Shown: in pieces, positions 3,903 through 63,015 of the stretch
Layout of the letters: every line of letters starts with the position of its first letter
How positions within the stretch are numbered: position 1 is the first letter of the stretch
Assembly: GCA_036502225.1 (NCBI GenBank)
Contig: DASXYY010000029.1
Coordinates: 14,151 to 78,150, forward strand
DNA: 64,000 bases
DNA from: Opitutaceae bacterium
GTDB lineage: Bacteria; Verrucomicrobiota; Verrucomicrobiia; Opitutales; Opitutaceae
Reading direction: 5' to 3'
Notes under the pieces: generated by a model
The model's database searches: none
The model's input: the letters and a program-made list of their open reading frames with translations, nothing else
What the model was told of the DNA's origin: nothing
Translations under genes and position numbers: made by a program

Positions 3903-6514
3903 GCCTCCTCGAACGTTTTTGGCGCGAGCCGGTGCTCCGCACGGTGCTGCCGAATGGGCTGACCGTCATCATCAAAAGGGACGCGTCGGCGGCGCTGGCC
4001 TCCGTGCAAGTCTGGGTCAAGACCGGCAGCATTCACGAGGGCGACCAACTTGGCGCCGGGTTGTCACATTACCTGGAGCATATGCTGTTCAAGGGAACCG
4101 AACGGCGAGCTGGCCGGGAAATCTCTGCGACAGTGCAAGCTCATGGCGGTTACATCAACGCGTACACCACCTTTGACCGCACGGTCTATTATATCGATTT
4201 GCCGAGCGAACACACGGCGATGGCGGTCGATTTGCTGGCGGACGCGGTGCTGAGTTCCACCCTGCCGGAGGGCGAAGTGGCGAAGGAAAAGGAAGTGATC
4301 ATGCGCGAAATCGCCATGACGCGCGACGATCCCGACGATCGCCTGTGGCAGGCGATGTTCGCCACGGCGTTTCGCGAGCATCCGTATCGCTTTCCCGTCA
4401 TCGGCCATCGCGAATTGTTTGCCGGCAACGAGCGGGGTGAGCTCGAGGGTTACTACCGCTCGCGCTATGTGCCGAACAATCTGGTGGTGGTGATCGTGGG
4501 GGGGATCGATCCGGATGAGACTCTCAAGGTGGTCGAGGAGAAATTTGGCGGACGTTCGCGCGGGCGCCTTCGTCCCGTGCTGGTGACCGAAGAACCCCTG
4601 CAGCTGGGGCCGCGTGAATTGCATGTGACGGAGGACGTCGAAATCGTCCGCGCGGCCATCGCGTGGCAGGTGCCGGGCCTCACGCATGCGGATGCGCCGG
4701 TGCTCGATCTGCTGGCGATGGTGCTCGGGCACGGCGACAGCTCGATCCTGTGGCAGGAGCTGCGGGAAAAAGCCAAAGTGGTGCACACGATCGATGCGTC
4801 GTGCTGGAACCCGGGCACGAGCGGGCTGTTCTGCGTTTCCTTCACCTCGGAGTCGGGCAACCGGGAAAAGGCGGAGGCGGTGCTGGACAAGGTCCTCAAG
4901 CGCTGCGCGGTCAAGGGATTCAAGGCGCAGGACATCAAACAGGCGGTGCGCCAATTGATCGCCAACGAAGTGGCCTCCCGGCAAACGATGAGCGGACAGG
5001 CCAGCCGGCTCGGCGCGGCCGAAGTGGTCGCGGGGGATCTGCATTTCAGCCAGCAGTACTTCGAGCGGCTCGAACGCGTGACCGCGGCGCAGCTCAAGCA
5101 GGCGCTGAAGAAGTACCTGGTGCGGCAGACGCGGACGGCCGTGTCGTCGAATCCGATGGAGGCCAAAGCGGCCATCGCCACGGCGCCAAAGGCGACGGGC
5201 AAGGCCTCTCGAAAAAAAGCGGAATCCGTCGGGGAATTCGAACTGGTCACTTTGAAGAACGGCGCCCGCCTGCTGCTGCAGCAGGAAAAACGCCTTCCTC
5301 AAGTCCACCTTCGCATGGTCTGGCAGGGCGGCCCGGGTTTTGAAGATCCCGCGAAACGGGGCACTTCCGGGCTGGTCTCCACGCTGCTGAGCAAGGACAC
5401 GAAGCGGCGGTCGGCGGCCGAGGTGGCGCGTTACATCGAGTCGGTGGGCGGCTCCTTTTATCCTTTCAGCGGCAACAACAGCCTGGGTCTCGCGGTGGAA
5501 GTTCTGCCACCGGATTGGCTGCGGGCAGTCAGTGTGCTGAGTGACGCCGCGCTCGCGCCGGCTTTCCGGGCCGACACGTTCGCGGTGGAAAAGGAAGCGC
5601 AGCTTGCCGGTTTGCGCCAGGATCTGGACGACGTGGTCACCGAGGGGAGGAAGCTGCTGCGGAGGAAATTCTTCGGCGATCATCCCATGGGCATCGACGC
5701 AAACGGGACGGTGGAAGGCGTGGAGAAGCTGGCCGCCGGCGACATCGCGGCCCAGTACGGACGCCTGAATTTCGGATCGAACGTGGTGATTGCGGTCGCC
5801 GGGGATTTTGAGCCCAAGGCGGTGAAGCCGAAGCTGACGGCGCTTTTGGAGAAGGTGACAGTTGGCGCTGTAGCCGGGGGCGGGGACCCCGGCAAGAGCG
5901 CCATCAAACGCGGAAAAGCGCGTGGGGACCACGCGCTCCACCTTCGGCGACTGGGCCAACCCGGCGACTTCGTGGAAATTCGCGACAAGGAGCAGGCCGT
6001 CGTCCTGCGCGGCTACCCCGGCCCGGCGCTTCACACTCCCGACTACTACGTCAGCGAAGTCGCCGATGAACTGTTCAGCGGCATGGCCTCGCAACTGTTC
6101 GAGCGGGTGCGCGAAGAGAAGAGCCTGGCGTACTTTGTCCGCTCCTCCCGGGTCACCAGTTTGGATACGGCCATGTTCTCGTTCCTCGCCGGAACCAAGC
6201 CGGGGCGCGAAGACGAGGTGCTCGCCGAAATCGATATCGAGATCGAACGCGTCCAGACCGGGAAGGTCGAGGAAGCGGAGCTGCGCCGCTGCCAGGCCCG
6301 GCTCAAGGCGGGCCGCCGTCAAAGCCTTCAGACTAACGCGGCGCGGGCGCTGCACGCTTCGCTGAATGCGCTGCAGGGGCTGCCGATTGACGATTGGAAG
6401 AACTACGACGCGCGCATCGAGGCGGTGACGATCGCGGACTTGGCCGCGTTCGCGATGAAGTACCTCGTTCGCGCGCAAGCGACGCAGCTGGTGGTGCGCC
6501 CCAAGCCAGCCTGA
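3899..6514 (+). CDS. M16-family zinc peptidase, two tandem insulinase-like units fused (871 aa)
   Basis: HxxEH zinc motif in GLSHYLEHMLFKGT near the N-terminus. A second M16-like unit starts near EFELVTLKNGARLL. TTG start at 3899. Carries an in-frame repeat at 5870-5942. Confidence 0.85.
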   Translation: MSLLERFWREPVLRTVLPNGLTVIIKRDASAALASVQVWVKTGSIHEGDQLGAGLSHYLEHMLFKGTERRAGREISATVQAHGGYINAYTTFDRTVYYIDLPSEHTAMAVDLLADAVLSSTLPEGEVAKEKEVIMREIAMTRDDPDDRLWQAMFATAFREHPYRFPVIGHRELFAGNERGELEGYYRSRYVPNNLVVVIVGGIDPDETLKVVEEKFGGRSRGRLRPVLVTEEPLQLGPRELHVTEDVEIVRAAIAWQVPGLTHADAPVLDLLAMVLGHGDSSILWQELREKAKVVHTIDASCWNPGTSGLFCVSFTSESGNREKAEAVLDKVLKRCAVKGFKAQDIKQAVRQLIANEVASRQTMSGQASRLGAAEVVAGDLHFSQQYFERLERVTAAQLKQALKKYLVRQTRTAVSSNPMEAKAAIATAPKATGKASRKKAESVGEFELVTLKNGARLLLQQEKRLPQVHLRMVWQGGPGFEDPAKRGTSGLVSTLLSKDTKRRSAAEVARYIESVGGSFYPFSGNNSLGLAVEVLPPDWLRAVSVLSDAALAPAFRADTFAVEKEAQLAGLRQDLDDVVTEGRKLLRRKFFGDHPMGIDANGTVEGVEKLAAGDIAAQYGRLNFGSNVVIAVAGDFEPKAVKPKLTALLEKVTVGAVAGGGDPGKSAIKRGKARGDHALHLRRLGQPGDFVEIRDKEQAVVLRGYPGPALHTPDYYVSEVADELFSGMASQLFERVREEKSLAYFVRSSRVTSLDTAMFSFLAGTKPGREDEVLAEIDIEIERVQTGKVEEAELRRCQARLKAGRRQSLQTNAARALHASLNALQGLPIDDWKNYDARIEAVTIADLAAFAMKYLVRAQATQLVVRPKPA
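5870..5942. repeat. mixed REP doublet (type B unit + type A unit) inside the M16 CDS
   Basis: GTAGCCGGGGGCGGGGACCCCGGC...ATCAAACGCGGAAAAGCGCGTGGGGACCACGCGCTCCACC, translated in the host frame as [25 protein letters not shown]. Confidence 0.85.
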
Positions 6515-6634: not shown

Positions 6635-6641
6635 TTTGCTT

Positions 6642-6712
6642 TAGCCGGGGGCGGTGACCCCGGCCGTTCCGCTTTTGACGTCGAACAGCGCGTGGGGACC
6701 ACGCGCTCCACC
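6642..6712. repeat. mixed REP doublet (type B-like unit + type A unit)
   Basis: TAGCCGGGGGCGGTGACCCCGGCC...TTTTGACGTCGAACAGCGCGTGGGGACCACGCGCTCCACC. It ends 2 nt before the GTG start of the DUF1573 gene. Confidence 0.8.
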
Positions 6713-6714
6713 TC

Positions 6715-7395
6715 GTGACGGGCCCCCGGCGGCAGCGAAACGCCGCCCGACTTTGGTTCGGGTTGATCATGGCGTGGGTTTGTGTGGGCGCCCGCGCTTC
6801 CACCCTCGACTGGCCGTCGACCGTCAGGGAAGTCCACGCTCTCGCCGGTGGTCCGGGCCCGGTGATCGAGTTTCCTTTCGTGAATGGCGGCGACAAGCCC
6901 GTCCATCTTGTCCGCGCGACAGTCAGCTGCAGCTGCGTAGCGGTGGAGTTGCCTGCGTCGCCAATTGCCCCCGGCCAGCGTTCCCGCGTCATCTTGCGCG
7001 TCCAATCGGTGCGCAACGTCGGCCAGCGTCACCTGGGCGCCGCGCTCTACCTCGACGGTGAACCGCAGCCCGTGATGCTTTCCGCGATCGTTGATGTGGA
7101 CCAAGGGGTGCGCTTCGAGCCGGCCTCGCTTTATTGGCCAGTGGACGGGTCGCCCGCCGCCACGCAGGTAGCCGAATTGGTCGCAGCGGAAGGAAAGAAG
7201 ATCGACTCCGTCGAAGCGGCGCCGAATGCCGCGTATTCAGTTCGGATGATTCGTTCGACTGATGATTCTTCCGTGCGTTTGGAAATCAGGCCGGCCGCTG
7301 CGCGGCCGCCCGCCGCATCGTCCGTGAAGGTCAAAGTCCAGCTGCGCGGCGGGAGCCGGGTCGAGGCGGAGCTTTGGTTGATTGTGAAATCGTAG
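6715..7395 (+). CDS. DUF1573 domain-containing secreted protein
   Basis: IEFPFVNGGDKPVHLVRATVSCSCVAVE matches the DUF1573 pattern (F.F.N.G..P..I......SC.C). A GTG start at 6715 gives a proper signal peptide (RRQRNAARLWFGLIMAWVCVGARA-S). An alternative ATG lies at 6769. Confidence 0.7.
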   Translation: MTGPRRQRNAARLWFGLIMAWVCVGARASTLDWPSTVREVHALAGGPGPVIEFPFVNGGDKPVHLVRATVSCSCVAVELPASPIAPGQRSRVILRVQSVRNVGQRHLGAALYLDGEPQPVMLSAIVDVDQGVRFEPASLYWPVDGSPAATQVAELVAAEGKKIDSVEAAPNAAYSVRMIRSTDDSSVRLEIRPAAARPPAASSVKVKVQLRGGSRVEAELWLIVKS

Positions 7396-9904: not shown

Positions 9905-9987
9905 GGTGGAGGGGTATTGCACGGACTCTTGCGAATCGCCGCAAGCGCGGAGCCGGATTCCCAATTGAGTCCCAGCGGCCGCCGGGC

Positions 9988-10100
9988 TGTAGATCCGGGG
10001 GCTTATCCCGAGGTGGAGCGCGTTGTCCCTAACGCGCTGTTCGATGTCGAAAGCGGAAAAGCGCGTGGGGACCACGCGCTCCACCTCGCGATAGCGGGTC
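9988..10100. repeat. nested REP element: type B-like outer arms around a 73-bp type A doublet
   Basis: GTAGATCCGGGGGCTTATCCCGAG-GTGGAGCGCGTTGTCCCTAACGCGC-TGTTCGATGTCGAAAGCGGAAAA-GCGCGTGGGGACCACGCGCTCCAC-CTCGCGATAGCGGGTC. Lies between gmhB and the fpg-like gene. Confidence 0.85.
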
Positions 10101-10112
10101 AACGGCAGTTCG

Positions 10113-18839: not shown

Positions 18840-18911
18840 TGGGTTGGCTGGGATTCGAACCCAGAACCAACGACTTAAAAGGACGCTGCTCTACCATTGA
18901 GCTACCAACCC
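18840..18911 (-). tRNA. tRNA-Lys (anticodon UUU)
   Basis: Reverse complement folds as a cloverleaf: GGGTTGG-TA-GCTC-AATGGTA-GAGC-A-GCGTC-CTTTTAA-GTCGT-TGGTT-CTGGG-TTCGAAT-CCCAG-CCAACCC-A. One T-T mismatch in the anticodon stem. CCA is not encoded. Confidence 0.85.
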
Positions 18912-22279: not shown

Positions 22280-24224
22280 ACTGACTTCGTCTCGGATTTC
22301 CCGCTGGCTGGCGCCGCTGTCGATCGTGGCGGCGGGAGCGATCGCCTATGGCGACAGTCTGCGGGACGCCTTCGTCTACGACGATCGCCTCAGCCTGGTG
22401 GACAACCCGGCGATTCGGCATTTGGGGTCCATTGGGCAGGTTCTCAGTCCGGCCCACGAGGCGGCGACCTTGCAGGGGCGGCCGTTCCTGAGTCTGACGT
22501 TTGCGATCAACTACGCGTTGGGCGGGCTTGATCCGCTGGGATACCATCTGGTCAACCTGGCGATTCATGTGCTGGCGGGCGTGTGCCTGTATTCGCTGGG
22601 GCGGCGCTTTACCGGGATGGGCGCGGCGTGGGCGGTCGCCCTGCTTTGGACGGTGCATCCGCTGCAAACGGAGTCGGTCACGTATATCGTTCAGCGGGCC
22701 GAGTCATTGATGGGCCTCTGTTATTTGGCGACGATCCTGTGCTATTGCCGGTTCGCGGAAACCGGACGGCGTCGCTGGGCGGCGGGCGCAGTGGCCTGTT
22801 GTCTGGCCGGCGTCGGCACCAAGGAGGTGATGGTTTCGGCGCCGGTGATGCTGTGGCTGTTTGATCGAGCGTTCCTGGCGGGAAGCTTTCGGGCGGCGTG
22901 GAAGGCGAGGAAAGGACTGCTGATTGCGCTGGCCGCGACCTGGCTGCCGCTGATCGCGCTGGTGGCCGCGACGGGCGGCAACCGCAGCGGCGCGGTGGGA
23001 TTTGGGCTCAACATCCGGCCGATCGATTATTGGCTCACCCAGGGCGAGGCGGTGCTCCATTACCTGCGACTGGCGGTCTGGCCGTCGCCTCTGGTGCTGG
23101 ACTATGGGAGGTTTGTTTACGCGAATCCGGCGACAGGGATAGTGCGGGTGGCGGCGGTGGCGGGGTTGATTGCGGCGACGATTTGGGCGTGGCGGAAGAA
23201 TGCGAAGGTCGGATTTCTGGGGTGGTTCTTTTTCGCGATTCTCGCGCCGACGAGCCTCTTGCCGGGGACCACGCAGATGATGGCGGAACACCGGATGTAT
23301 TTGGCGTTGGCGCCGGTGCTGGTGCTGCTCGTCGTAGGTGCGGCGTTCTGCCTGGCAAGGTGGAGCGCGTGGTCCCCACGCGCTTGCGGCGTCGAAAACA
23401 GAATAGCCGGGGTCAGCGCCCCCGGCTACAGATGGATAGACCCCCGGCTACAGCCAGGCGCCGTTCTATGCGTTGCGGGTGTATTCATGTGGCTCACCTG
23501 GCGGCGCAACGTCGACTACCGCTCGGACACTGCGATTTGGGCCGATACCGCCGCAAAGCGCCCCGGAAGCGCGATCGCGCATTACAACTTTGGCTACGCG
23601 CTGGGCCCATCGTCCAAGGCCGAGGAAGAGCTCCGCACGTCGATTCGGCTAAATCCCCGTTATATCCAGGCCTATGACGTGCTGGGCTATGATTTGTCGC
23701 TGGAGCCCTCCGCTCGGGCTGAGGCGATCGCGGTTTACCGCCAGGCGCTCGCCATCGATCCGAACGACCTTTCCGCCGAAAACAACCTGGGACAGTTGTA
23801 TTTGAAGTTACCAGCTAATTTCGATGTGGGCGTGGAGTTGCTGACCCGGGCCGCCGAGCAAACGCACGATCCGCAGAACCATTTCGCGCTGGGTGTCATT
23901 CTTTCGAGGCATCCCGGGCACGAGCGTGCGGCGCTGGGGCAATTTGAGGAAGCGGTGCGGCTCGATCCCCGCAACGCCCGGGCGCATTCGAATCTGGCGG
24001 CGAGCCTGGCGGCGGTGGGGGCACCGGATTCCGCCGTCGTTGCGGAATTGCGCGAAGCGGTCCGCCTCGACCCGAAGTTCGTGGAGGCGCGGTTCAATTT
24101 GGCGGTGATGCTGGCGCGGGATCCGGCGCGAAACGCGGAGGCGATCGCGGAGGCGACGGCGGTGCTGGCGATCAAACCGGATTTTGAGCCGGCGCGGGAG
24201 TTGCTGAGTCAGTTGGGACGTTAG
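22263..24224 (+). CDS. polytopic membrane protein with C-terminal TPR repeats (TMTC/PMT_2-like)
   Basis: N-terminus AYGDSLRDAFVYDDRLSLVDNPAIRHLGS followed by about 9 TM segments. C-terminal TPR units (AIAHYNFGYAL..., ARAHSNLAASLA...). TTG start at 22263 overlaps the dop end by 17 nt. Carries an in-frame repeat at 23359-23451. Confidence 0.7.
   Translation: MPDSSELTSSRISRWLAPLSIVAAGAIAYGDSLRDAFVYDDRLSLVDNPAIRHLGSIGQVLSPAHEAATLQGRPFLSLTFAINYALGGLDPLGYHLVNLAIHVLAGVCLYSLGRRFTGMGAAWAVALLWTVHPLQTESVTYIVQRAESLMGLCYLATILCYCRFAETGRRRWAAGAVACCLAGVGTKEVMVSAPVMLWLFDRAFLAGSFRAAWKARKGLLIALAATWLPLIALVAATGGNRSGAVGFGLNIRPIDYWLTQGEAVLHYLRLAVWPSPLVLDYGRFVYANPATGIVRVAAVAGLIAATIWAWRKNAKVGFLGWFFFAILAPTSLLPGTTQMMAEHRMYLALAPVLVLLVVGAAFCLARWSAWSPRACGVENRIAGVSAPGYRWIDPRLQPGAVLCVAGVFMWLTWRRNVDYRSDTAIWADTAAKRPGSAIAHYNFGYALGPSSKAEEELRTSIRLNPRYIQAYDVLGYDLSLEPSARAEAIAVYRQALAIDPNDLSAENNLGQLYLKLPANFDVGVELLTRAAEQTHDPQNHFALGVILSRHPGHERAALGQFEEAVRLDPRNARAHSNLAASLAAVGAPDSAVVAELREAVRLDPKFVEARFNLAVMLARDPARNAEAIAEATAVLAIKPDFEPARELLSQLGR
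23359..23451. repeat. mixed REP element (type A unit + type B unit + extra B tail) inside a CDS
   Basis: GGTGGAGCGCGTGGTCCCCACGCGCTTGCGGCGTCGAAAACAGAATAGCCGGGGTCAGCGCCCCCGGCTAC-AGATGGATAGACCCCCGGCTAC. 93 bp = 31 codons, read as WSAWSPRACGVENRIAGVSAPGYRWIDPRL. Confidence 0.85.
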
Positions 24225-35238: not shown

Positions 35239-36497
35239 GGACGCCCGTGACGCCGGTCGTCACGTACCTCTTCACGACGTTTCCCAAGGACACGGAAACG
35301 TTCCTGCAGCGCGAAATCATCGCGATGCGCGCGGCCGGAGTGGAGGTCGAGCTTCACTCGCTGTGGGGTGGCAAGGACCGTTTTCGCGGCCAGCCGGTGC
35401 GGCGCTTTTCCAAGTGGAGGCTCCTGACGCTCTTTTGGAAAATCCCGATTGAAGCGCGTCGGCGCCCCGAGGTCCTGAAGGAATTGCTGGGCGGACTGGC
35501 GCGCCGTCGTCCGCCGTCCTGGATCAATTTATGGGAAAACCTGCTCGGAGCAGGGTTCGCCTGTGTTCAGGCCGCGGAATTTCGCGCGCGCCGTCCGCAG
35601 TGGATCCACGCAACCTGGGCGGGTGGTCCAGCCACCGCGGCCTGGCTCCTGGGGCGCATCGATGGCCACCGCTATAGCGCGGCGGCCCATGCCTATGACA
35701 TTTTTGAGCACGGCGGGGACTGGTGGCTGCGCGAGAAGCTGCTGCCGGCGGCGTTTGTGCACACCTCGACGGAAATGGGGCGCCGGACGCTGATCGAGCG
35801 CGGCGTTCCCTCGGAAAAAGTGGTCTGCATCCGCCGGGGGCTGGACCGGTTGGGGGCCGTCAAACGATTGCGGTCCACGCGGCTGCCCCTTCGTCTGCTG
35901 TGCATCGCGCGCCTCGTGGCCAAGAAGGGACTGGACCACCAGCTCCGAATCTACGCGGCCCTTCGGGATGCGGGCGTACCCTTCACCGCCAAGATTGTGG
36001 GGGAAGGGCCGCTCCGCGGAGACTTGGAACGTATGGCCGGACGTCTCGGCATCGCCGCGCGGGTCACGTTTACCGGCGCGCTTCCGCATCACGAAGTGCT
36101 GGGTGAATTGGCCGAGGCTGACGTCCTCTTGCATACCGGCGTGGTCGCCCCCAGCGGCGACCGCGACGGATTGCCCAACGTGATTCCCGAAGCGATGTCG
36201 GCCGGCGTCGTGGTGCTGACATCCCCCACGGCGGCGACGACCGAGGCCGTCACGGACGGCGTCAGCGGGCTGGTCTGTCCGGTGGAGGAACCCGCCGCTT
36301 GGGTGCGGGCGTTGGAGCGCATTGCCAAGGACGATGCGCTGGCCGAGGCGTTGCGCGCCGCCGCCCGGCGATGGGTGGAGGAAAACTTTGACGCGCACCG
36401 CAACGCCGCGAAGCTGCGGAGAGAGTTCGAGCAAGCGTGCGCCTTGACGTCGAAAGCGGAAAAGCGCGTGGGGACCACGCGCTCCACCTCGAAATAG
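35235..36497 (+). CDS. GT4-family (GT-B) glycosyltransferase, WcaL-like N-terminus
   Basis: VTYLFTTFPKDTETFLQREI N-terminus. C-half DRDGLPNVIPEAMSAGVVVL (EX7E-type). The last ~17 codons and the TAG stop lie in repeat 36444-36508. Start is TTG 35235 or GTG 35247. Confidence 0.75.
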   Translation: MRTPVTPVVTYLFTTFPKDTETFLQREIIAMRAAGVEVELHSLWGGKDRFRGQPVRRFSKWRLLTLFWKIPIEARRRPEVLKELLGGLARRRPPSWINLWENLLGAGFACVQAAEFRARRPQWIHATWAGGPATAAWLLGRIDGHRYSAAAHAYDIFEHGGDWWLREKLLPAAFVHTSTEMGRRTLIERGVPSEKVVCIRRGLDRLGAVKRLRSTRLPLRLLCIARLVAKKGLDHQLRIYAALRDAGVPFTAKIVGEGPLRGDLERMAGRLGIAARVTFTGALPHHEVLGELAEADVLLHTGVVAPSGDRDGLPNVIPEAMSAGVVVLTSPTAATTEAVTDGVSGLVCPVEEPAAWVRALERIAKDDALAEALRAAARRWVEENFDAHRNAAKLRREFEQACALTSKAEKRVGTTRSTSK

Positions 36498-36508
36498 CCC
36501 CCGGCTAC
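36444..36508. repeat. half REP element (core + type A unit + type B tail)
   Basis: TTGACGTCGAAAGCGGAAAAGCGCGTGGGGACCACGCGCTCCACCTCGAAATAGCCCCCGGCTAC. It contains the stop codon of the upstream GT4 and ends 3 nt before the next ATG. Confidence 0.85.
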
Positions 36509-36511
36509 AAC

Positions 36512-37573
36512 ATGATCTGGCTCGATGTGACCAAGACGGCCGATGCTCGGCACAAGTCGGGACTCACGCGGGTGACGACGAAGGTGCGCGCGGCGCTGGG
36601 CGAGGCGGCAAACGAACATCGGTGGCTCCCGCGGCAGGGTTGGAATGTGCCGGCTTCGCCCGACGATTGGTATCTGACGGCCGAGGTGTTTGCGCCGCAC
36701 GAACGACCCGGCTTCGGGGAATTTGTGCGGCAGCGTCCCGTGAAGCTGGCCGCGATCTTTCACGATGCGATTCCGCTGGAGTTGCCGCACATCACCTGGC
36801 CGAAATCGGTCGGACGCCATCCGCTGTATCTGTCCATGCTGGCGGAGTTCGATCGGGTGTTGGCGGTGTCGAATTACAGCCGTGAACGGCTGCTCGGGTT
36901 CTGGAAGTGGCAAGGGAGGGCGGTCCGGGCGCAGGTGGACGTGATTCCGTCGGGGGCGGATTTTTTGGTTCCTGTAGCCGGGGGCCTATCCCGAGGTGGA
37001 GCGCGTGGTCCCCACGCGCTCCACCTCGGGATAGCCCCCGGCTACAGCAAACGGCCGCTGGTGCTCTGTGTAGGGATACTTGAGCCCCGGAAGAACCAGA
37101 CTTTTCTACTGAAGGTGGCAGAAACGCTCTGGGCGGAGGGTCTCGACTTCGACCTCACCTTCGTCGGCCGCATCAATCCGCACTTTGGCCGGCCGATCGC
37201 TCGCGCCCTGCGCCAATCGCGCGCTCGCTACCTCGGCGCGGTGAGTGACGAGAAGCTCGTCCAGCTCTACCGCGAAGCCACCGTCTGCGCGTTGCCGACT
37301 CTCGCCGAAGGCAATGGATTGCCTCTCCTGGAAGCTTTGTGGTGCGGGACGCCCTGCATCGCTTCCGAGCTTCCTCCGCTCCAGGAAAATGGCGGAGAAG
37401 GCTGTCTGCTGGCACCGACCGGCGGTGAAACGGCCTGGGCCATTGCTTTGCGGGGTGTGATCGCGCGTCCCGATTTCGCGGCGCAATTTCGATCTCAGGC
37501 CGCCACGCGCCGCGCCACGCTCCCTCGCTGGGCGGACACCGCCCGCGCGCTTCAAAGCTTCTTGAGCGCGTAG
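36512..37573 (+). CDS. GT4-family (GT-B) glycosyltransferase carrying a 24-codon palindromic insert
   Basis: ATG at 36512 (MIWLDVTKTADARHKSGLTRV, similar to the N-terminus of the 38781-39965 GT4). C-half LCVGILEPRKN...AEGNGLPLLEALWCGTPCI. Insert at 36974-37045. Confidence 0.7.
   Translation: MIWLDVTKTADARHKSGLTRVTTKVRAALGEAANEHRWLPRQGWNVPASPDDWYLTAEVFAPHERPGFGEFVRQRPVKLAAIFHDAIPLELPHITWPKSVGRHPLYLSMLAEFDRVLAVSNYSRERLLGFWKWQGRAVRAQVDVIPSGADFLVPVAGGLSRGGARGPHALHLGIAPGYSKRPLVLCVGILEPRKNQTFLLKVAETLWAEGLDFDLTFVGRINPHFGRPIARALRQSRARYLGAVSDEKLVQLYREATVCALPTLAEGNGLPLLEALWCGTPCIASELPPLQENGGEGCLLAPTGGETAWAIALRGVIARPDFAAQFRSQAATRRATLPRWADTARALQSFLSA
36974..37045. repeat. nested 72-bp palindrome (type A hairpin inside type B arms) within a CDS
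   Basis: GTAGCCGGGGGCCTATCCCGAG-GTGGAGCGCGTGG-TCC-CCACGCGCTCCAC-CTCGGGATAGCCCCCGGCTAC. Only one unpaired base. Confidence 0.95.
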
Positions 37574-38780: not shown

Positions 38781-39965
38781 TCAGCTATTGGCAACCTTGC
38801 CTTTGGGCCCGAGGGCTCCCATCCAGTCCAATAGCTCCCGCGCATGGTCGGCGGTGGTTTTAAATCGGCGTCGGCATGCGACCTCGGCCAGGGCGGAAAG
38901 TTCGGCCGGATGGTGCAAAAGGCGCGAGATTGCCTCCCGCAGGGATGGCACATCGGGTTGATCGACGGTCAGGCACCCTCCGCCGGCGGCCGTTTCCCCC
39001 ACGGCGCCCTGGCGGCAGCAAATGCAGGGTTTTCCCCGGGCGAGGCTTTCCGCGATGGGCAGGCCGAACCCCTCGGCGACCGAGGCGTAAACGGTGAAGC
39101 TGGCCGAAGCGTAGGCCCGCTCGACCGTGGCGTCATCGACCGCACCCTCATGCACCAGAGGCCGGCCCGCGGCTTGAAGCTCGGCGATTCGTTTCAAGGC
39201 CCGCCTCCCGGTTTGCATCTGTCGCAATCCGATCAGGCGGACTCTGAACTGGTCGCCCTGAGCCCAAAGGCTTTCGCAGGCATCGAGCAGGGCGACGTGG
39301 TTCTTTCGCCCTTCGATCGTGCTGACGTAAAGGATCTCGGGGCGGCCATCGCCCGCTTCGGAGGCCGGCAGCGTCGCCGGCACATCGATTCCCAGGGGAA
39401 TCGATTCCACCGGAGGCGCTCGGCGAATTCCGAGCCAGTCCCAATAGGAAAGCAGTTCGGACTTGGACGTCTCCGAGACGGCGGCGATGCCGTCGAACAT
39501 CCGCAGCTCCTGCAAGTAGGGGGGCAGGCGCGCCACCGTGTTGGGCGCGGCAAACTCCGGGAGCCGGACAGCGGTCGCGTCATGAAAAAGGGCAATGCGG
39601 GCTCCTCCCACGTGAGGCAGGAACTGCGGCAGTGCCAGTCCGACGTCCCTCGAGAACAATTCCGGCACAATCAGGCCGGCCGAGCCAGCCGCCCAATCGA
39701 AGCCGTTTTGCCGTCGGGACAGCCACCCTCGCAAGCGCGACGGCCAAGGCCAGTGCGCGCCTCGTTTGGCGGCGGGCTTCTCCACGGCGAGTTTTCGATG
39801 TTCCCAGGCCCGCAGGGGACGCCACGCACGCTGAAATCGGTCGTAAGTAATGGGCCGGCCCTGAGTTCCCAGGCCTCGCCACAACCCGCGGGCGACGCGC
39901 TGGACACCGGTGCGGGCCGCGGTGTGGCTCGTATGGGTCAAGTCAACGAATACCGGCTGCGACAT
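38781..39965 (-). CDS. GT4-family (GT-B) glycosyltransferase
   Basis: ATG at 39965. N-terminus VFVDLTHTSHTAARTGVQRVARGL. C-half VSTIEGRKN...AEGFGLPIAESLARGKPCI (EX7E). Confidence 0.75.
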   Translation of the reverse strand: MSQPVFVDLTHTSHTAARTGVQRVARGLWRGLGTQGRPITYDRFQRAWRPLRAWEHRKLAVEKPAAKRGAHWPWPSRLRGWLSRRQNGFDWAAGSAGLIVPELFSRDVGLALPQFLPHVGGARIALFHDATAVRLPEFAAPNTVARLPPYLQELRMFDGIAAVSETSKSELLSYWDWLGIRRAPPVESIPLGIDVPATLPASEAGDGRPEILYVSTIEGRKNHVALLDACESLWAQGDQFRVRLIGLRQMQTGRRALKRIAELQAAGRPLVHEGAVDDATVERAYASASFTVYASVAEGFGLPIAESLARGKPCICCRQGAVGETAAGGGCLTVDQPDVPSLREAISRLLHHPAELSALAEVACRRRFKTTADHARELLDWMGALGPKGKVANS

Positions 39966-44726: not shown

Positions 44727-46376
44727 TTAAAAGGTCGCGATCGATTCCAGACGTTTGCGATACAGAGCGCCGATCCTCGCCGGCGAAAATCTCTCTTCGA
44801 TTGTCGTTCGGGCGGCGGCCCCCAGCCGCGCGCGCAGGGCCGGTTCCAGCGCCAGCCGGCACATCTGCTGGGCGGCATGGCGGATGTCCGGCTCCGCCCA
44901 CACATTGCCCCGGGCGTACGGACCGTGGTTGCGCTCGAGCGTGACTTCCGCGCAACGGACCGGGCAGCCGTTCTCGGCATTCACGTATTCCGCCGTGGCC
45001 GACCAGTCGGTGGTCACCACCGGCAAGCCCAGGTACATGCACTCGGCGACGACCAGGCCAAAGCCTTCCGACCGGTGCAGCGAAACGAGCGCGTTGCAGG
45101 CCGCCTGAAGTTCGTAGGTTTGAGCCCGCGTGATCGTCTCGGTCAGCAGCCGGATGCCCGGCTGGGCGGCCGCGGCGGCCTTGAGGCGCTCCCAGTCGGC
45201 CGAATTCATCCCGGCATTGTGAACTTTGACCACGAGCGTCGCGCCCTGCGCCGCCAGGCCCGATTCCGCGAACGCCGCCAGCGCGCCTTCCGGGTTCTTG
45301 CGGGCCGAGTAGGAGTTCAGGTCAAACAGGCTGAGAAAGTAAAAGCCCTCGGCCGGCAGGCCGAATTTGGCGCGCAGCACTTCCCGCGATTCGGCCGGCC
45401 GATCGAAGGCGACGGCATGGGGCAGCGTGAGGACCGGCCACGGGGATTTGGCCGCGACCGCCCGCCGGGTGAAGTCACTGGGGCACCACACCTCGTCGAA
45501 ATAGTCCAGGCTCTCGACCCAGGCGTCGGGAAACTCCGGCAGCTCCCACGCAAAATAGGCGACGTTGTATTTGCCGTTCCGGAAATTCGGCCCGTGGTGG
45601 TGATCGATGTCGCGGGCCGCCGGCGGGTCGACGTGAAAGACATTCACCCCCAGGGGATTTTCCTCGCGCCAGCGTTCCGCGTAGGTCCGGTCTCCCTTCG
45701 GGTTCAGGCAATTGAGCTTCAGGGGAACGAGGGAGCACGGCAGCCCGGCGGCGTCCGCGGCGCGCACCATGCAGCGGGCGGATTCGCCCAGCCCCAGGTC
45801 GGCGGCCAGGTGGCCCACGACATTCAGCCCCAGGTGCGCGTGCCGCCGGACAAAGGAGCGGCTCAGGGGGCTGTGCCGCTGGCTGAAATCGTAGATGAAT
45901 TCGCCGGCCGTCGTCGTCAGCGATTGGATACGAATCTGCCGGTTGCGGTTTTGCTTCCGGTAGCGCGCCAGCGCCGGCAGCGCGCTGACGCGCGCCACCC
46001 AGGCGAGCGCGTTGGTGTGGGCGACGCCTTCCAGAGTCAGGGTAAGGATGGGGTGTTCCGTCCGCGCCGCGGCCGAGAGGGGAAGGCGCACTTCCCAGGC
46101 GCCCGGTTCGGAAGCCGCCACGCCGCCGACCGGAACCCCGTTGATCGCGATGCTCAGTCCCGGGAAGCCGGCTTCGACGCCGCGAACCTCGGGATGAATG
46201 ATGCATTCGCCGCGGAGCACGAGGGCGTCGATGCCGTCGAGCGGCGGCAGCCGCAGCCGGGCCGCTTCGCGAATCCAGGCCGAGTTCTGGGCGAACTCGT
46301 CGTAGAACAGGCCGCTATAATCCGTGAAGCGGCGGTGAAAGGAGCCTCCGGAGGGGGCCGCGCGGTTCAGGGGCAT
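44727..46376 (-). CDS. GT4-family glycosyltransferase with ~190-aa N-terminal extra domain
   Basis: ATG at 46376 (MPLNRAAPSG). C-region VSLHRSEGFGLVVAECMYLGLPVVTTDWSATAEYV (EX7E). Confidence 0.7.
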   Translation of the reverse strand: MPLNRAAPSGGSFHRRFTDYSGLFYDEFAQNSAWIREAARLRLPPLDGIDALVLRGECIIHPEVRGVEAGFPGLSIAINGVPVGGVAASEPGAWEVRLPLSAAARTEHPILTLTLEGVAHTNALAWVARVSALPALARYRKQNRNRQIRIQSLTTTAGEFIYDFSQRHSPLSRSFVRRHAHLGLNVVGHLAADLGLGESARCMVRAADAAGLPCSLVPLKLNCLNPKGDRTYAERWREENPLGVNVFHVDPPAARDIDHHHGPNFRNGKYNVAYFAWELPEFPDAWVESLDYFDEVWCPSDFTRRAVAAKSPWPVLTLPHAVAFDRPAESREVLRAKFGLPAEGFYFLSLFDLNSYSARKNPEGALAAFAESGLAAQGATLVVKVHNAGMNSADWERLKAAAAAQPGIRLLTETITRAQTYELQAACNALVSLHRSEGFGLVVAECMYLGLPVVTTDWSATAEYVNAENGCPVRCAEVTLERNHGPYARGNVWAEPDIRHAAQQMCRLALEPALRARLGAAARTTIEERFSPARIGALYRKRLESIATF

Positions 46377-47362
46377 GGGGCGGATGCGGCAGCGTGTTCC
46401 AACGAGCGCCAGCGTGCAAATTCGATTGCGAGGGCCGCGCGCGCCCCCTCGGCGGCGCGGGCGGGCGGGCGGCGGCGCAGGCCGTAGCGACACAGGGCGG
46501 CCTGACCGGCCAGCCGGCGGTCGGGGTAGTCGCGGGGTTCAGGCAGGTAGCGCTCGAAGTAGGCTTGGGTCCAGGCCATTTCCGCCAATCGGGACAGCCG
46601 TTCGGCCCAGCTCCGGGCCAGGCGGTGCGCGTTGGCTTCATTCCGCGCGTTGCGATTGGGGCTGGCGCTGACGTGGTGATCGACGGCGCTGCGCAGGGCG
46701 ACGGCGTTGGTGCGGCCCAGTTCAGCGGCCCGGAAACAAAGGTCCACGTCTTCGCAGCCATTGAAATAACCTTCGTCGAACCCCCCGAGCGTGCGCCACA
46801 ATTCGGCCGAGATCAGCAGGCACGCGCCGGTGACCGCCGGAACCAAGGAGAAACCGCGCAGGCGTTCGGTGACGGGCGCCCGTTTCCGATGCTCCGGCTT
46901 GGCTTTGGCGTTGATTACGATGCCGGTGTGGTCGATCGCGCCGTCGCTGACGCGGTATTGCACGTTGCCGATGGCGCCGGCTTGGCCGCGCCGGGCGAGC
47001 CCGCCGTGCAGGGCAAGCATGGGTTCAAGCCAGCCGGGGCGAAGGACCAGGTCGTTGTTGAGGAGGACGAACAGATCGCCTTTGGCTGAAGCGGCGGCCC
47101 GGTTGTTGGATTTGGCGTAGCCCGAGTTTTGCGAGTTAAGCAGAACTTGCAGCCGGGAGCCTATCCCGAGGTGGAGCGCGTGGTCCCCACGCGCTCCACC
47201 CTTCAGCCATTCCCTGGTTCCGTCGGTGCTCCCATCGTCGACCAGGATGATCTCATGCGCCAAACCCGCGGGCATCGTCGCCTGCAGACTGGCCAGCATT
47301 GCCTGCGAGTACGGCAGGCAGTTGTAAAGCGGAACAATGAAACTGACCGCCGGGGCGCCCAA
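46367..47362 (-). CDS. GT2-family glycosyltransferase carrying an in-frame repeat insert
   Basis: VSFIVPLYNCLPY, ILVDDGSTDGT, VLLNNDLVL (DXD-type). TTG start directly after the rmlA stop. Insert at 47149-47210 is read as [19 protein letters not shown]. Confidence 0.75.
   Translation of the reverse strand: MGAPAVSFIVPLYNCLPYSQAMLASLQATMPAGLAHEIILVDDGSTDGTREWLKGGARGDHALHLGIGSRLQVLLNSQNSGYAKSNNRAAASAKGDLFVLLNNDLVLRPGWLEPMLALHGGLARRGQAGAIGNVQYRVSDGAIDHTGIVINAKAKPEHRKRAPVTERLRGFSLVPAVTGACLLISAELWRTLGGFDEGYFNGCEDVDLCFRAAELGRTNAVALRSAVDHHVSASPNRNARNEANAHRLARSWAERLSRLAEMAWTQAYFERYLPEPRDYPDRRLAGQAALCRYGLRRRPPARAAEGARAALAIEFARWRSLEHAAASAPCP
47149..47210. repeat. partial nested REP element (B-like arm + minimal type A hairpin) within a CDS
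   Basis: GCAGCCGGGAGCCTATCCCGAG-GTGGAGCGCGTGGTCCCCACGCGCTCCAC-CCTTCAGCC. The right outer arm is decayed. Confidence 0.8.
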
Positions 47363-55550: not shown

Positions 55551-57522
55551 TTGTTCGGGGCAGGTCTTCGGAACTGCTCCAAGCTTCCGCCATCAGTGCG
55601 ACCAAGAAGATGAGTCCGGCGGCCAGCGTAATCGTGCCCGCCCAGCGCGTGGCCCTCCACGCGGCGTGGGACCACCGGCCCATTTCGACAGGGTCGGCGA
55701 ACGCGAACCACGCGTTGGGACGATCGACGCGGGCTTCGACGACAAAGGGCCCGGAGGGCGCGCGGACGAACGCGTTGTGCCAGCCCTCTCCCGGGACGTG
55801 ATCGGGTTTGACCGTGGCCAGGACCCGGCCGGTCGTCGGATCACTCAGTGTCAGGGAAAGTCCGGTGCGGCCCAGATCGCCGGCCACGAGAAATTGGAGC
55901 CAGCCGCGAACGGGGGACGATACGGGCTGACTGCGCCAGACCGCCGGTTCGGCGCCGTAGGAACCATGGAAGCGGGCTTCGTCCAAGGGCGCGGTGTTCG
56001 GAGAAAGTCCGTCATTCTCCTTGGGATACGGAGGCTGGTTCTGAGGACCGCGGGTATCGGCATCGGCGAAGCCGGTGGTCGCGGCGGTGGTCAGAGCAAG
56101 CGGCAGCCGCACCGAGGCCGGCAGCAGGCGGCGGATGGGCGGCATCCGCAGGACCTCGGCCAGCGAGGCCGCGTCCGGGTAGGGGATCTCGGGATGCCGC
56201 AAAAAGGCCTCATCGCCGGAGGCGAGAAAAAACCGGGTGTTGGATTCAGCGTAGCCGTAGAATCGCGGAAGATCCTTCAGTTGCCCGGGCACCACGTCAC
56301 GCAACTGGTAGCAGAGGCCGATCACGAGAAGCAACGTCCAGGCCCCGGCCAGAAGCAGCCACAGCCGTCGCTTTCCGACTGTGCCGTGGTCGCCGGCAGG
56401 ATCGCTGTAGCCGGGGGCGTTGACACCGGCACCTGCGGTGTCGAAAGCGGGACTGCCGGGGTCACCGCCCCCGGCTACAGAATGCAGCCCGCCGTCGACG
56501 AGGACCGCCAGGCAGAGCGCATTGGTGATGAGGCCCAGGAAGAAGGTGTCGATGTAGCGGGGCGCTGGCGGCGGCGCGCTCCCGCCTCGCGCATAAGCCA
56601 TCGCGGCAACCTGCATCAGAACCCACAAGCCAAGCACAAATAGCAGCAGGTTGAATTGCGTCGCGGGACGCCGGCGGAGAATCCGAACCGCAACCACGGC
56701 CCACGGGACCCAAAACAGCAGCGCGGTGTAACCCCATCCGGCTTCGAAAACGGGCCAGCCCAACCCCCGCATCGCCGCCCACCAGAAGGTGGCGAACGAA
56801 TGAGCCTGCAGGAAATAGTGTCCCGCGACGACGACCCGGATATGCACACCGAGGGCGAATAGGGCGGCGCACAACAGGACCGTCACTGCGGCGACCCACG
56901 AAATCGAGCGTTCGCGCCAGGCTTGAACGAGGACGACGGCGGCGCACGCGAACGCCGCCATGGGGCCGCTGCCCATCGCAACGAGCGACAGGGCCGCCGC
57001 CGCCAATCCCAGCCACCATGTTGCCTGTTTGGGCCGGCGGAAGGGAAGCCAGCACAGCGCCCCGAGCGCGAATAGGATCAGGTACCATTGCTGCGAATGA
57101 AACCCGTGGATGGCGTTTTCCCATGAGAATAATCCGGAGAATGCCATCGCTAGCAGGAGGCCGTTGACCGCAGTGCTTCGGCGCGAAAGATTCCGGCTGG
57201 CCAGGAGCAGAAAACAGACCGCGATCGCCGCGGGAATGCATGCGTTGACGACGGCCTCCAGCCGTTGATCCCACTGGCGATTCGCGATGGTCAGCCCGAG
57301 CGCGACCAATCGGGTCGGAACAATGCGGTGCTCGTTGTGCGCGTGAAAGAGATTGGAAAGGCTGTGATCGCCGGAGTACCACGGCTCCAGGATTTGCCGG
57401 GCTTCCGCATCCCATTGATCGAGCTCCGGGAGCGACCTGCCGAACCGATCGACAAGCGCCCAACGGAACCCCATGACGAAGAGAAACAAGGCCACGGCGG
57501 CCAACGTCAGAGAACGCCTCAT
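55495..57522 (-). CDS. polytopic membrane protein, candidate GT-C glycosyltransferase (paralogue of 57519-58913), with a 24-codon palindromic insert
   Basis: ATG at 57522. TM1 then the acidic loop PELDQWDAE. About 11 TM segments, then a ~200-aa C-terminal soluble domain. Insert at 56407-56478. Confidence 0.6.
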   Translation of the reverse strand: MRRSLTLAAVALFLFVMGFRWALVDRFGRSLPELDQWDAEARQILEPWYSGDHSLSNLFHAHNEHRIVPTRLVALGLTIANRQWDQRLEAVVNACIPAAIAVCFLLLASRNLSRRSTAVNGLLLAMAFSGLFSWENAIHGFHSQQWYLILFALGALCWLPFRRPKQATWWLGLAAAALSLVAMGSGPMAAFACAAVVLVQAWRERSISWVAAVTVLLCAALFALGVHIRVVVAGHYFLQAHSFATFWWAAMRGLGWPVFEAGWGYTALLFWVPWAVVAVRILRRRPATQFNLLLFVLGLWVLMQVAAMAYARGGSAPPPAPRYIDTFFLGLITNALCLAVLVDGGLHSVAGGGDPGSPAFDTAGAGVNAPGYSDPAGDHGTVGKRRLWLLLAGAWTLLLVIGLCYQLRDVVPGQLKDLPRFYGYAESNTRFFLASGDEAFLRHPEIPYPDAASLAEVLRMPPIRRLLPASVRLPLALTTAATTGFADADTRGPQNQPPYPKENDGLSPNTAPLDEARFHGSYGAEPAVWRSQPVSSPVRGWLQFLVAGDLGRTGLSLTLSDPTTGRVLATVKPDHVPGEGWHNAFVRAPSGPFVVEARVDRPNAWFAFADPVEMGRWSHAAWRATRWAGTITLAAGLIFLVALMAEAWSSSEDLPRTITSVANCNTGISRAPRSK
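56407..56478. repeat. type B REP doublet (72 bp) within a CDS
   Basis: GTAGCCGGGGGCGTTGACACCGGC-ACCTGCGGTGTCGAAAGCGGGACT-GCCGGGGTCACCGCCCCCGGCTAC. Confidence 0.9.
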
Positions 57523-62000: not shown

Positions 62001-63015
62001 TGTCGCCGTCGCAAAAGAGCACCGCGTCGCCGGTGGCTTCGCGCGCGGCGCGATTGCGCGCCGCCGACGGACCGGCGTTTTCCTGCCGGATGAATTTCCA
62101 ACCGAGGGGCCAATAGCGGTCGTTGGCCTTTTTCCACGCGAGCTCGGCGGTGGGACTCGTCGAGCCGTCGTCGATCACGATGACCTCGTGCGGGCGCAGG
62201 GTTTGGACAGAGAGAGTGTCGAGGGCTTCCTTGAGGTACTCGGCCTTCTCGTAGTAGGTGACGCAGACGCTGATTTTTATTGGTAGGTCGCGGCTGCCGC
62301 TGGACCTGTAGCCGGGGGCGTTGACCCCGGCCCCTTTGACATCAAAAGCGGGATTGCCGGGGTCAACGCCCCCGGCTACATCGACTGCCAACGGCGGGAC
62401 GCTTTTCCCGGGGCTTCCCTCCACTGCCAGCCACGGGCGAATGGGCGCTTTCGTCCAGGCTGATTCCTGGAGCCATTCGACCAGCTCGTTGCGAGCGGCG
62501 TAAATTTCATCCGCCGCTCCGATCGCCCGGCGCTCCAGAAATTCCGTCGCGATTCCGCTGCGGCCTTCGTCGGGAAACCGCCCCGCCCGCGTCCGCTCGA
62601 ACTCCGCCACGGTGGTCACGAAGAGGCGCAGGGCCGGGGGGGCCTTGAGCTTGCGGCCGGCCAGGGTCAGCCAGCCGCAGCGGCGGGCGCCTCCGATGGA
62701 TGCGGCGTGGGCCGGATGGCCGGCGAACCAAATCTCGTCGGCTTGGATGACGGCGCCGACATGCGCCAGGCGCAGGCCGACCGCATGGGCGTCGGCGGCG
62801 GGAAAGATCGGAACCGAAAAGGCCGGGGGCTCCTCGTCGAGATGCTGGTACTCGAGTCCGGCGGCCTCCGCCTTTTGCCGGAGCGAGCGGCTCAGCACCG
62901 CGCCAATGCGCTGGGAATGCAGCAGGATGACCCGGTCCGTCCGCCGTGCCACGGCAGCCAAATCCCAGGCGAACCCATCGCCGGGGTTAAGCTCGTGCGC
63001 GACAATGCAAATCAT
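59041..63015 (-). CDS. 1324-aa multidomain glycosyltransferase (N-terminal GT-B-like half, three GT2 domains, coiled coil)
   Basis: GT2 signatures ISVCVTYYEKAEY...VIVIDDGSTSP, FSILIPVFNPDERW...ICIADDASTLP and VSIIIPTHNAGKL...VILVDNRSGES. Coiled coil ARLESELVPARAAVERLENERHAADSARVAAEARAAEAKIE. Insert at 62308-62379. Confidence 0.8.
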   Translation of the reverse strand: MICIVAHELNPGDGFAWDLAAVARRTDRVILLHSQRIGAVLSRSLRQKAEAAGLEYQHLDEEPPAFSVPIFPAADAHAVGLRLAHVGAVIQADEIWFAGHPAHAASIGGARRCGWLTLAGRKLKAPPALRLFVTTVAEFERTRAGRFPDEGRSGIATEFLERRAIGAADEIYAARNELVEWLQESAWTKAPIRPWLAVEGSPGKSVPPLAVDVAGGVDPGNPAFDVKGAGVNAPGYRSSGSRDLPIKISVCVTYYEKAEYLKEALDTLSVQTLRPHEVIVIDDGSTSPTAELAWKKANDRYWPLGWKFIRQENAGPSAARNRAAREATGDAVLFCDGDNRFRPEMIATLARAMSSSGADCVTCAFEVFRDAPSHIFAPLGPCHELALVENVLGDTNTLFRRDAFLELGGFKPGLVNEDWRLLIDWLRAGRTMETVPAVLFDYRVGATSRSGHEAEFASATAVIDPLLASEPGWRRLWPHIAGALRDDRVARLESELVPARAAVERLENERHAADSARVAAEARAAEAKIEANRFRIIDRMRRAHVVLLEEVSARTREQAADANQALRQARREIATQTETASRYRTDAEGEIFALRGRLGRMAASFSWRITAPLRALRRLLIDRFKPKPEAAAPGPAANSTLPITSHLDAPRYWNGLSGPVTIRGWCFSQSLTQFGAIRARIGARVYGGAYGGERPDLLLVFPAWPYSATAGFKIDAMLESGDPAVDLEAQDTDGVWHPFFHRDLHAGDPDSHGTYAHWLKAHPEPSPAVLDRLRRQAAALPPLRFSILIPVFNPDERWLRAALDSVLAQTYSDWEICIADDASTLPHVGQVLDEYSALDRRIKVTRRPRNGHISAATNTALALATGDWVALFDHDDTLAPHALHCIAQEVVAHPDAALIYTDEDKIDEQGTRFDPHFKPDWNPDLLCSQNYLCHLTVYRADVVRGLGGMREGFEGSQDWDLALRATERLAPSQIRHLPRILYHWRAGEGSTALQLSTKGYVAESARRALAEHFERTGQKVELTPTVGGHWHATYRLAEDRPHPLVSIIIPTHNAGKLVRLCIASIFARTRYAPYEVILVDNRSGESESLAIFAALQREDDVRFVRYDAPFNYSAINNFAAKEARGEVLCLLNNDIEALDPRWLDEMVGHAMRPGIGAVGARLLYPDLRVQHAGVITGLGGVAGHPFKLFEKNDPGTPQFRPHLTQNLSAVTAACLVIRKDTFLAVGGLEEKGLPVAFNDVDFCLRVEGLGLRNVYTPLAELVHHESASRGPEDTPEKVARFQSEIEAIQARWGARLLNDPAYNPNLSLDSEDFALAYPPRVPPL
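62308..62379. repeat. type B REP doublet (72 bp) within a CDS
   Basis: GTAGCCGGGGGCGTTGACCCCGGC-CCCTTTGACATCAAAAGCGGGATT-GCCGGGGTCAACGCCCCCGGCTAC. Confidence 0.9.

Follow-up and report, generated by a model that had tools for sequence, protein, structure and literature searches.

A probable REP-type insertion, translated in frame, in the interdomain linker of a GT4 glycosyltransferase from an uncultured Opitutaceae bacterium

How does a long, near-perfect palindrome come to lie within a gene that stays open from start to stop? The question is raised by a 64,000-nt stretch of an Opitutaceae bacterium (assembly GCA_036502225.1, contig DASXYY010000029.1, positions 14,151 to 78,150), referred to here as the window, in which a 72-nt palindrome (GTAG...CTAC, positions 36974-37045) occupies the interdomain linker of a gene for a family 4 glycosyltransferase (GT4). 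Very probably, the 72-mer is a selfish and non-autonomous repeat of the repetitive extragenic palindromic (REP) or REP doublet forming hairpin (REPIN) type, a collapsed composite that is nearly neutral in a permissive linker. The insertion is probably recent. GTAG-headed arms of one repeat class (type B) would enclose a GTGG-headed doublet of another (type A), and the GT4 copy would be an internally collapsed version of this composite, reduced to a single hairpin by slippage from one CCACGCGCT direct repeat of the doublet to the other. Mobilisation would depend on a transposase of the REP-associated tyrosine transposase (RAYT) type, IS200/IS605-like and with Y1 chemistry, presumably encoded elsewhere in the genome. 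Once inserted into a linker tolerant of almost any length and sequence, the element would be translated as a 24-residue loop and would persist through near-neutrality at this site, with no host function required.

Fold, anatomy and variants of the palindrome

Sequence, reading frame and RNA folding all agree with an earlier note on this DNA, which described a near-perfect 72-bp palindrome spanning 24 codons of a GT4 linker; the letters are those quoted there. An inverted-repeat search gives two arms of 28 nt (36981-37008 and 37012-37039, 96% complementarity) that enclose a loop of 3 nt, with a further, outer pair at 36969-36985 and 37034-37050. Folded with RNAfold, the segment 36960-37060 reaches -84.1 kcal/mol, versus -39.1 +/- 3.6 kcal/mol for 200 dinucleotide shuffles, none of which is as stable (z = -12.4), and the 36 pairs run from C36972 to G37047. 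The single unpaired base announced in the note is present, but it is not the G named there: the sole bulge in the stem is C36986 on the + strand, and a G is found at this place only on the - strand.

The element had also been read as a type A hairpin nested in type B arms, and comparison with the other repeats of the window confirms this anatomy. The parts are the head and 5' stem of a type B REP (GTAGCCGGGGGC), the connector CTATCCCGAG and a type A REP cut to one hairpin headed on both sides. In the left arm, CCGGGGGC with its GTAG head equals the first 14 nt of the type B REPs, the preceding CT counted in. The inner hairpin is identical to a copy at 47171-47199, and a 35-nt half of the palindrome matches a second site with 2 mismatches (expected 0.00). 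In an intact type A doublet, each REP has the 9-mer CCACGCGCT in its 3' stem, so that the two copies form a direct repeat, and a deletion from one copy to the other gives the collapsed hairpin exactly when the sequences are compared. We infer replication slippage as the mechanism of this deletion. The likely source form, judged by its architecture, is a full-length intergenic composite near the left end of the window (Table 1).

The junction between outer arm and inner REP is found at four other loci of the window, which argues for a recurring subfamily of A-in-B composites and not for a one-off nesting. Two origins had been envisaged, insertion of one REP class into another or descent from a composite master copy. 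The recurrence of the junction favours the composite, and it speaks neither for nor against REP-into-REP insertion as the event that first created it. The flanks (GGTTC-CTGTAG...CTACAG-CAAAC) contain terminal inverted repeats and no direct repeat that could be a target-site duplication, which fits mobilisation of the Y1 type and not of the DDE type. With these ends, the palindrome would not qualify as a classical miniature inverted-repeat transposable element (MITE).

A fold-back chimera, created by sequencing or assembly of short metagenomic reads, is scarcely credible as the origin of the palindrome. The source is indeed a metagenome contig, and a contig from a third sample (L032) breaks within the palindrome, its position 1 corresponding to window position 37016; because this end lies at the palindrome centre, the element is seen to break short-read assemblies. 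The two single-nucleotide polymorphisms (SNPs) described below could in addition be hairpin-related sequencing errors. Against this, the exact 353-aa protein spanning the element is encoded on three contigs from independent assemblies (JGI 3300036780, JGI 3300037258 and the NCBI TPA metagenome-assembled genome (MAG) entry HEY3755998.1, annotated as Opitutaceae bacterium), and this agreement led to the rejection of an assembly artefact. The whole window is 100% identical to the JGI metagenome contig Ga0376652_0000361. Furthermore, the same gene continues in frame on both flanks, and uncollapsed doublets lack the loop-to-tail junction TCCCCACGCGCTCCAC, which mis-traversal of an assembly graph at normal k therefore cannot make.

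Two population variants, L031 and L032, differ from the window at only two positions, one in 5,062 nt and one in 3,558 nt (~8.6 kb together). Both differences fall within the palindrome, with a joint chance of ~1.2e-4. One (36976 A>C) turns the GTAG head into GTCG and the other (37030 G>T) affects the right arm; each breaks a pair without compensation and occupies a synonymous third position. The palindrome is either a hot spot of real variation or one of sequencing error.

The stability of the stem invites another explanation, namely that the hairpin is a selected cis-regulatory structure of the operon (a site for RNase III or RNase E, a ribosome pause or an attenuator), the pairing of which is kept by selection. 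This is improbable, and equally so in the version in which the hairpin would set the expression of the C-terminal half of GT4 or of the genes downstream. In principle, a 36-bp stem of -84 kcal/mol (z = -12.4) has the length that RNase III requires, a second copy lies directly 5' of the start codon of the same gene, and Di Nocera et al. (PMC3733652) argue for a role of many REPs as RNA elements. But the same sequence is dispersed between genes and within unrelated ones, the orthologues in a conserved syntenic cluster all lack it, the only two population SNPs sit in the stem and break pairs uncompensated, and the stem would be held unfolded by translating ribosomes. Neither a U-tract, nor a terminator-scan match, nor an Rfam family is associated with it. 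The strong effect on transcription and translation that the earlier note expected finds no support here, given the missing U-tract and Rfam match and the pair-breaking SNPs.

As to termination, the palindrome is followed on its 3' side by AGCAAACGG, without a U-tract, and the terminator scan of the region gives no match to it; a Rho-independent terminator was rejected on the ground of the missing U-tract. The sole match of that scan in the region is a small T6-tailed hairpin (TCCGTCGGGGGCGGA TTTTTTGGTT) at 36946-36970, in the coding sequence just 5' of the palindrome. Such terminator-like sites are expected 1.2 times in shuffled sequence and were found once. The Rfam search of the window returned one tRNA gene only and no family for the palindrome.

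The host enzyme and its linker

The enclosing open reading frame (ORF) extends over 36437-37573, and its true start is the ATG at 36512 (MIWLDV...), according to the orthologues and to the 353-aa gene call of JGI. Preceded by ...VIPSGADFLVP and followed by S-KRPLVLCVGILEPRKN, the 72-mer is read as VAGGLSRGGARGPHALHLGIAPGY. Since it measures 24 codons and its frame is one of three that are free of stops, the element is simply translated. Downstream of it, residues 179-331 match Glyco_trans_1_4 (PF13692, 72.5 bits) and Glycos_transf_1 (PF00534, 64.7 bits). The nearest relatives of the protein belong to Opitutaceae (Verrucomicrobiota), and the best is ~72% identical (71% by BLASTP, 73% in the alignment). 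The gene order lepA, signal peptidase, GT, GT4, aminotransferase (-) and GT (-) is kept at four orthologous loci (L001, L003, L005 and L006), which establishes the orthologues as positional.

All 70 invariant columns of a 21-sequence alignment are retained in the protein of the window (70/70). They include the two glutamates of the EX7E motif, E266 and E274 (AEGNGLPLLEA), in line with the earlier statement that the C-terminal half keeps this motif. The segment between GADF and LLCVGIxEPRKN behaves quite differently, with about 12 to 60 residues among orthologues and no conserved sequence, and all 24 residues encoded by the REP fall within it. The peptide itself is found in none of the 20 orthologues, nor in the paralogue at 38781-39965, a comparison that had been proposed in the note.

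An AlphaFold2 model built on the 21-sequence alignment has a predicted local distance difference test score (pLDDT) of 88.3 and a predicted template modelling score (pTM) of 0.86. Residues 154-178 are the only segment with pLDDT <50; they lack secondary structure and connect the strands 141-144 and 183-187. Foldseek matches the model to MshA, BshA, SenB and PimA/PimB' (probability 1.00, TM ~0.7). The host product is accordingly modelled as a GT4 enzyme of the GT-B class with a confident predicted fold, and the 24-residue loop is predicted to be disordered and surface-exposed. Pfam, Foldseek and the model thus place the element where the note had placed it, in the interdomain linker of a GT-B enzyme. 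Together, the variable linker, the retained invariant residues and the confident fold indicate that the insertion is tolerated.

Inactivation is another reading: the gene could be a young pseudogene, its ORF open by chance. The interdomain linker of GT-B enzymes has a part in domain closure. The near-perfect arms make the insert look recent. In addition, the length of the element is divisible by three and three of its six frames are stop-free, so that an ORF would stay open after about half of random insertions and no special adaptation is needed. Even so, a pseudogene is improbable. The ORF is intact with all 70 family-invariant columns, EX7E among them, the predicted fold is confident, orthologues function with linkers of up to 64 aa, and, besides the two synonymous changes in the element, the gene and its flanks are the same in the population variants.

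Several observations sit less easily with a tolerated insertion. The alignment behind the predicted disordered loop has gaps in this part. Without the 24 codons, the linker would measure 7 aa, below the orthologue minimum (12 aa or more), and since this remainder is shorter than any orthologue linker, the event may have replaced native linker sequence and not simply lengthened the linker. No empty-site allele turned up that would fix the boundaries of the insertion or the ancestral linker. Searched by tblastn with Oter_2468 and three other Y1 transposases, neither the window nor the loci compared with it yielded a RAYT-like ORF (the best E value was 0.018, over 24 aa). Finally, the two synonymous SNPs are compatible with some constraint on the peptide, with n = 2.

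The repeat family within the window

The reading of the 72-mer as a selfish repeat draws on its many relatives nearby; all repeat counts cover the 64-kb window and not the whole genome. The 13-mer core of type A, GTGGAGCGCGTGG, occurs in 27 copies where 0.42 are expected, most of them paired in inverted orientation at a distance of 71-84 nt, and the outer-arm motif in 15 copies where 2.3 are expected. The window has ~17 elements, of which 11 lie just 3' of stop codons or in intergenic spacers according to analysis of the GC content at third codon positions (GC3). A typical type A element consists of GGTGG-AGCGCGTGG-TCC-CCACGCGCT, a spacer of ~25-30 nt and AGCGCGTGG-GGA-CCACGCGCT-CCACC. Its unit, GTGG-AGCGCGTGG-TCC-CCACGCGCT, measures 25 nt, and the doublet has two palindromic REPs inverted with their heads outward, which is the layout of a REPIN.

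The type B class (CTGTAG-CCGGGG-GCGTTGA-CCCCGGC ... GCCGGGG-TCAAC-GCCCCCGG-CTACAG, with the unit GTAG-CCGGGG-GCGTTGA-CCCCGG) has the same layout. Both classes share the spacer core GTCGAAAGCGG, around which A/B chimeric doublets are built at 5866-5945, 6640-6735 and 23358-23452. Such doublets suggest that the two classes, both of one superfamily, exchange modules. The traits of the GTAG/CGTC superfamilies are recognisable, with a short stem-loop unit within the 20-40 bp of their definition, GTAG/CTAC outer ends, GTGG/CCAC inner ends and dispersed high copy, and the GT4 element would belong to the GTAG/GTGG-tagged REPs of Di Nocera et al. (PMC3733652). Typical copies of the family are doublets of 71-84 nt, and the GT4 copy is a single collapsed hairpin, best classed from its architecture as a REPIN derivative and not as a canonical REPIN.

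Table 1. The palindrome, its host gene and other repeat copies and features in the window
Feature	Position	Strand	Description
Host gene, GT4 (GT-B) glycosyltransferase	36512-37573	+	353 aa; REP = residues 155-178
Full palindrome CTGTAG...CTACAG	36972-37047	+	76 nt, 36 pairs, bulged C36986, 3-nt loop TCC
Left outer arm	36974-36995	+	GTAG head + CCGGGGGC, then connector CTATCCCGAG
Inner collapsed type A REP	36996-37024	+	GTGG-AGCGCGTGG-TCC-CCACGCGCT-CCAC; head (GTGG/CCAC) at both ends
Right outer arm CTCGGGATAGCCCCCGGCTAC	37025-37045	+	Reverse complement of the left arm, with one C missing
Full-length intergenic composite	9987-10108	+	Both outer arms around an uncollapsed two-hairpin type A doublet
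Half composite	36444-36511	+	Spacer core, right type A REP, right outer arm
Sibling collapsed type A REP, in frame in GT2 gene 46367-47362 (-)	47149-47201	+	Left outer arm only; hairpin same as in GT4
Degenerate right arm at composite junction	6713-6735		
In-frame REP, M16 peptidase	5866-5945		A/B chimera
In-frame REP, PMT_2/TPR membrane protein	23358-23452		A/B chimera
In-frame REP, membrane protein	56404-56481		
In-frame REP, 1,336-aa multi-GT2 protein	62305-62382		
tRNA gene	18840-18911	-	Only Rfam match in the window

Six of the ~17 elements, the GT4 copy included, lie in frame inside long ORFs of high GC3 (Table 1). Peptides read from the other in-frame copies include DVAGGVDPGNPAFDVKGAGVNAPGYR, and Pfam domains flank or span several of the intragenic inserts. 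At the site in the GT2 gene, the alignment shows all 12 orthologues to be 9-12 residues shorter exactly there. The half composite stands exactly at the junction between the upstream GT gene and GT4, where orthologues have a 4-nt ATGA stop/start overlap. Here, 68 extra nt add to the upstream GT a 17-aa tail, LTSKAEKRVGTTRSTSK*, and a stop codon, and the hairpin of this half copy is placed ~30 nt 5' of the GT4 start codon.

Known systems and related elements in other genomes

The closest parallel is found in the same family of bacteria. Di Nocera, De Gregorio and Rocco (2013, BMC Genomics 14:522, PMC3733652) divided REPs between two superfamilies, tagged GTAG and CGTC, and found the most intragenic GTAG REPs, among the species surveyed, in Opitutus terrae. 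For strain PB90-1, they catalogued 70 in-frame inserts of the families GTAG-17 to GTAG-20 (PMC3733652, Additional file 3), over half of which are dimers with a coding length of 20-30 aa. In O. terrae, GTAG-20 units mostly carry a GTGG head, and GTAG-17 peptides read 'VAGVADPGPGSASPA', 'VAGVADPG...', 'VAGGGDP' and '...PGY' (PMC3733652). The elements of the window resemble these REPs in their Opitutaceae host, the GTAG head with its GTGG variant, the short GC-rich stems and the inverted dimers. GTAG-17 uses the same frame and is near-identical to the type B copies of the window and to the ends of the GT4 element ('VAGG...APGY'). The differences concern the host, which is another, uncultured organism whose protein is ~72% identical to its closest orthologue, and the published O. 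terrae insert list, which contains no glycosyltransferase and no type A peptide GGARG[PD]HALHL. The architecture of the GT4 copy, a two-class composite collapsed to one 36-bp stem, is not described there either.

In-frame intragenic REPs of 20-30 aa being already catalogued for O. terrae (PMC3733652), the GT4 case is a clean new example and no new phenomenon, and it reveals no new kind of element or mechanism. It extends the in-frame colonisation of genes by REPs to an uncultured relative, with at least 6 of ~17 elements intragenic in 64 kb, and illustrates how insertions survive where linkers and loops vary. Inserts of this kind make proteins longer, supply C-terminal tails, uncouple overlapping genes and break short-read assemblies; annotators and users of structure prediction should recognise them. 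A 36-bp stem in an apparently intact ORF also offers a natural test case for translation through stable hairpins and for palindrome stability.

REPINs are mobilised by RAYTs, Y1 HUH transposases encoded in the same genome and as a rule bordered by the REPs themselves (Bertels and Rainey 2011, PMC3116915; PMC3337134). As in REPINs, two inverted REPs and a short spacer make a long hairpin, and the elements are dispersed, multi-copy, mostly located just 3' of genes and devoid of target-site duplications. Unlike the GT4 copy, REPINs are described as extragenic, and this copy lacks the spacer and the equivalent of one REP. REPs inside longer palindromes are known from other species (PMC3733652). 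The window follows this pattern in that a REP or REP dimer lies regularly within a second, longer inverted repeat, and departs from it in that the arms are the head and 5' stem of the other REP class of the same genome, with A/B chimeras as well.

A more distant comparison is offered by the Rickettsia palindromic elements (RPEs), ~100-150 bp long (Ogata et al. 2000 Science 290:347, via PMC10969869 and PMC3733652). A 2024 review names RPEs as the extreme among in-frame MITE fusions and suggests that comparable cases exist in other organisms (PMC10969869), and Di Nocera et al. place RPE-4 and RPE-6 in the CGTC and not the GTAG superfamily (PMC3733652). The likeness lies in selfish palindromes that stand in frame in many unrelated genes, at sites judged compatible with fold and function, and this in-frame insertion into protein-coding genes is seen, from alignments and the model, in the GT4 and GT2 copies. 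RPEs belong to obligate intracellular Alphaproteobacteria and are not known to be related in sequence to the GT4 element, so that the parallel is one of analogy only, homology being implausible in view of phylum and base composition. Rickettsia genomes are AT-rich.

Among the orthologues of GT4, the protein at L005 (53% identical, from another Opitutaceae genome) has a GTGG-headed inverted repeat of its own in the same linker (3551-3658). It starts with CTGGTGGAGCGCG and has 31-nt arms with 81% complementarity, 46 nt apart. Another REP at this locus (4186-4218) supplies the C-terminus and stop codon of the same orthologue, and a minimal collapsed hairpin occupies a nearby spacer (5584-5613). 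The peptide motif 'GGAR' appears in three orthologue linkers, and in L005 it is real REP sequence. The 'GGAR' of L006, considered as a REP, was set aside as coincidental, its DNA being unrelated (GGG GGC GCC CGG). The closest orthologue, P0001 (JGI 3300050821), has a linker of 21 aa. At L001, the linker of orthologue P0002 measures 42 aa and includes a perfect 12-nt inverted repeat (3096-3107 and 3156-3167) with a 15-nt one nested; this motif occurs only at that place in the 7-kb locus and may be a decayed repeat insertion.

It is tempting to go further and to regard REP elements not just as passengers but as a recurrent source of length variation in the linkers and loops of Opitutaceae proteins. 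This wider reading is doubtful and draws on the L005 linker repeat, the residual inverted repeats in other long linkers and the two synonymous SNPs of the palindrome. If it were true, long palindromes in frame would act as local hot spots of mutation, and the translated peptides would come under selection once inserted.

Searches outside the window returned little on the composite itself. The exact 37-nt collapsed composite has no match in a genome contig collection, which does not hold the source genome, and the composite was not seen outside the organism of the window in a scan of the metagenome collection. The 22 metagenome matches to the composite junction TATCCCGAGGTGGAGCGCG were dismissed as chance coding matches (YPEVER), none of which continues into the hairpin. 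A 47-aa concatenation of two REP readings gave no protein match in a search that also missed known carriers and is hence uninformative. In another verrucomicrobial lineage, a homologous type A doublet lies at L007 7060-7130 (Chthoniobacter sp. MAG DASYAY010000036.1); it is among the matches listed for a generic type A hairpin scan, its spacer is of the same subtype and its right REP is degenerate.

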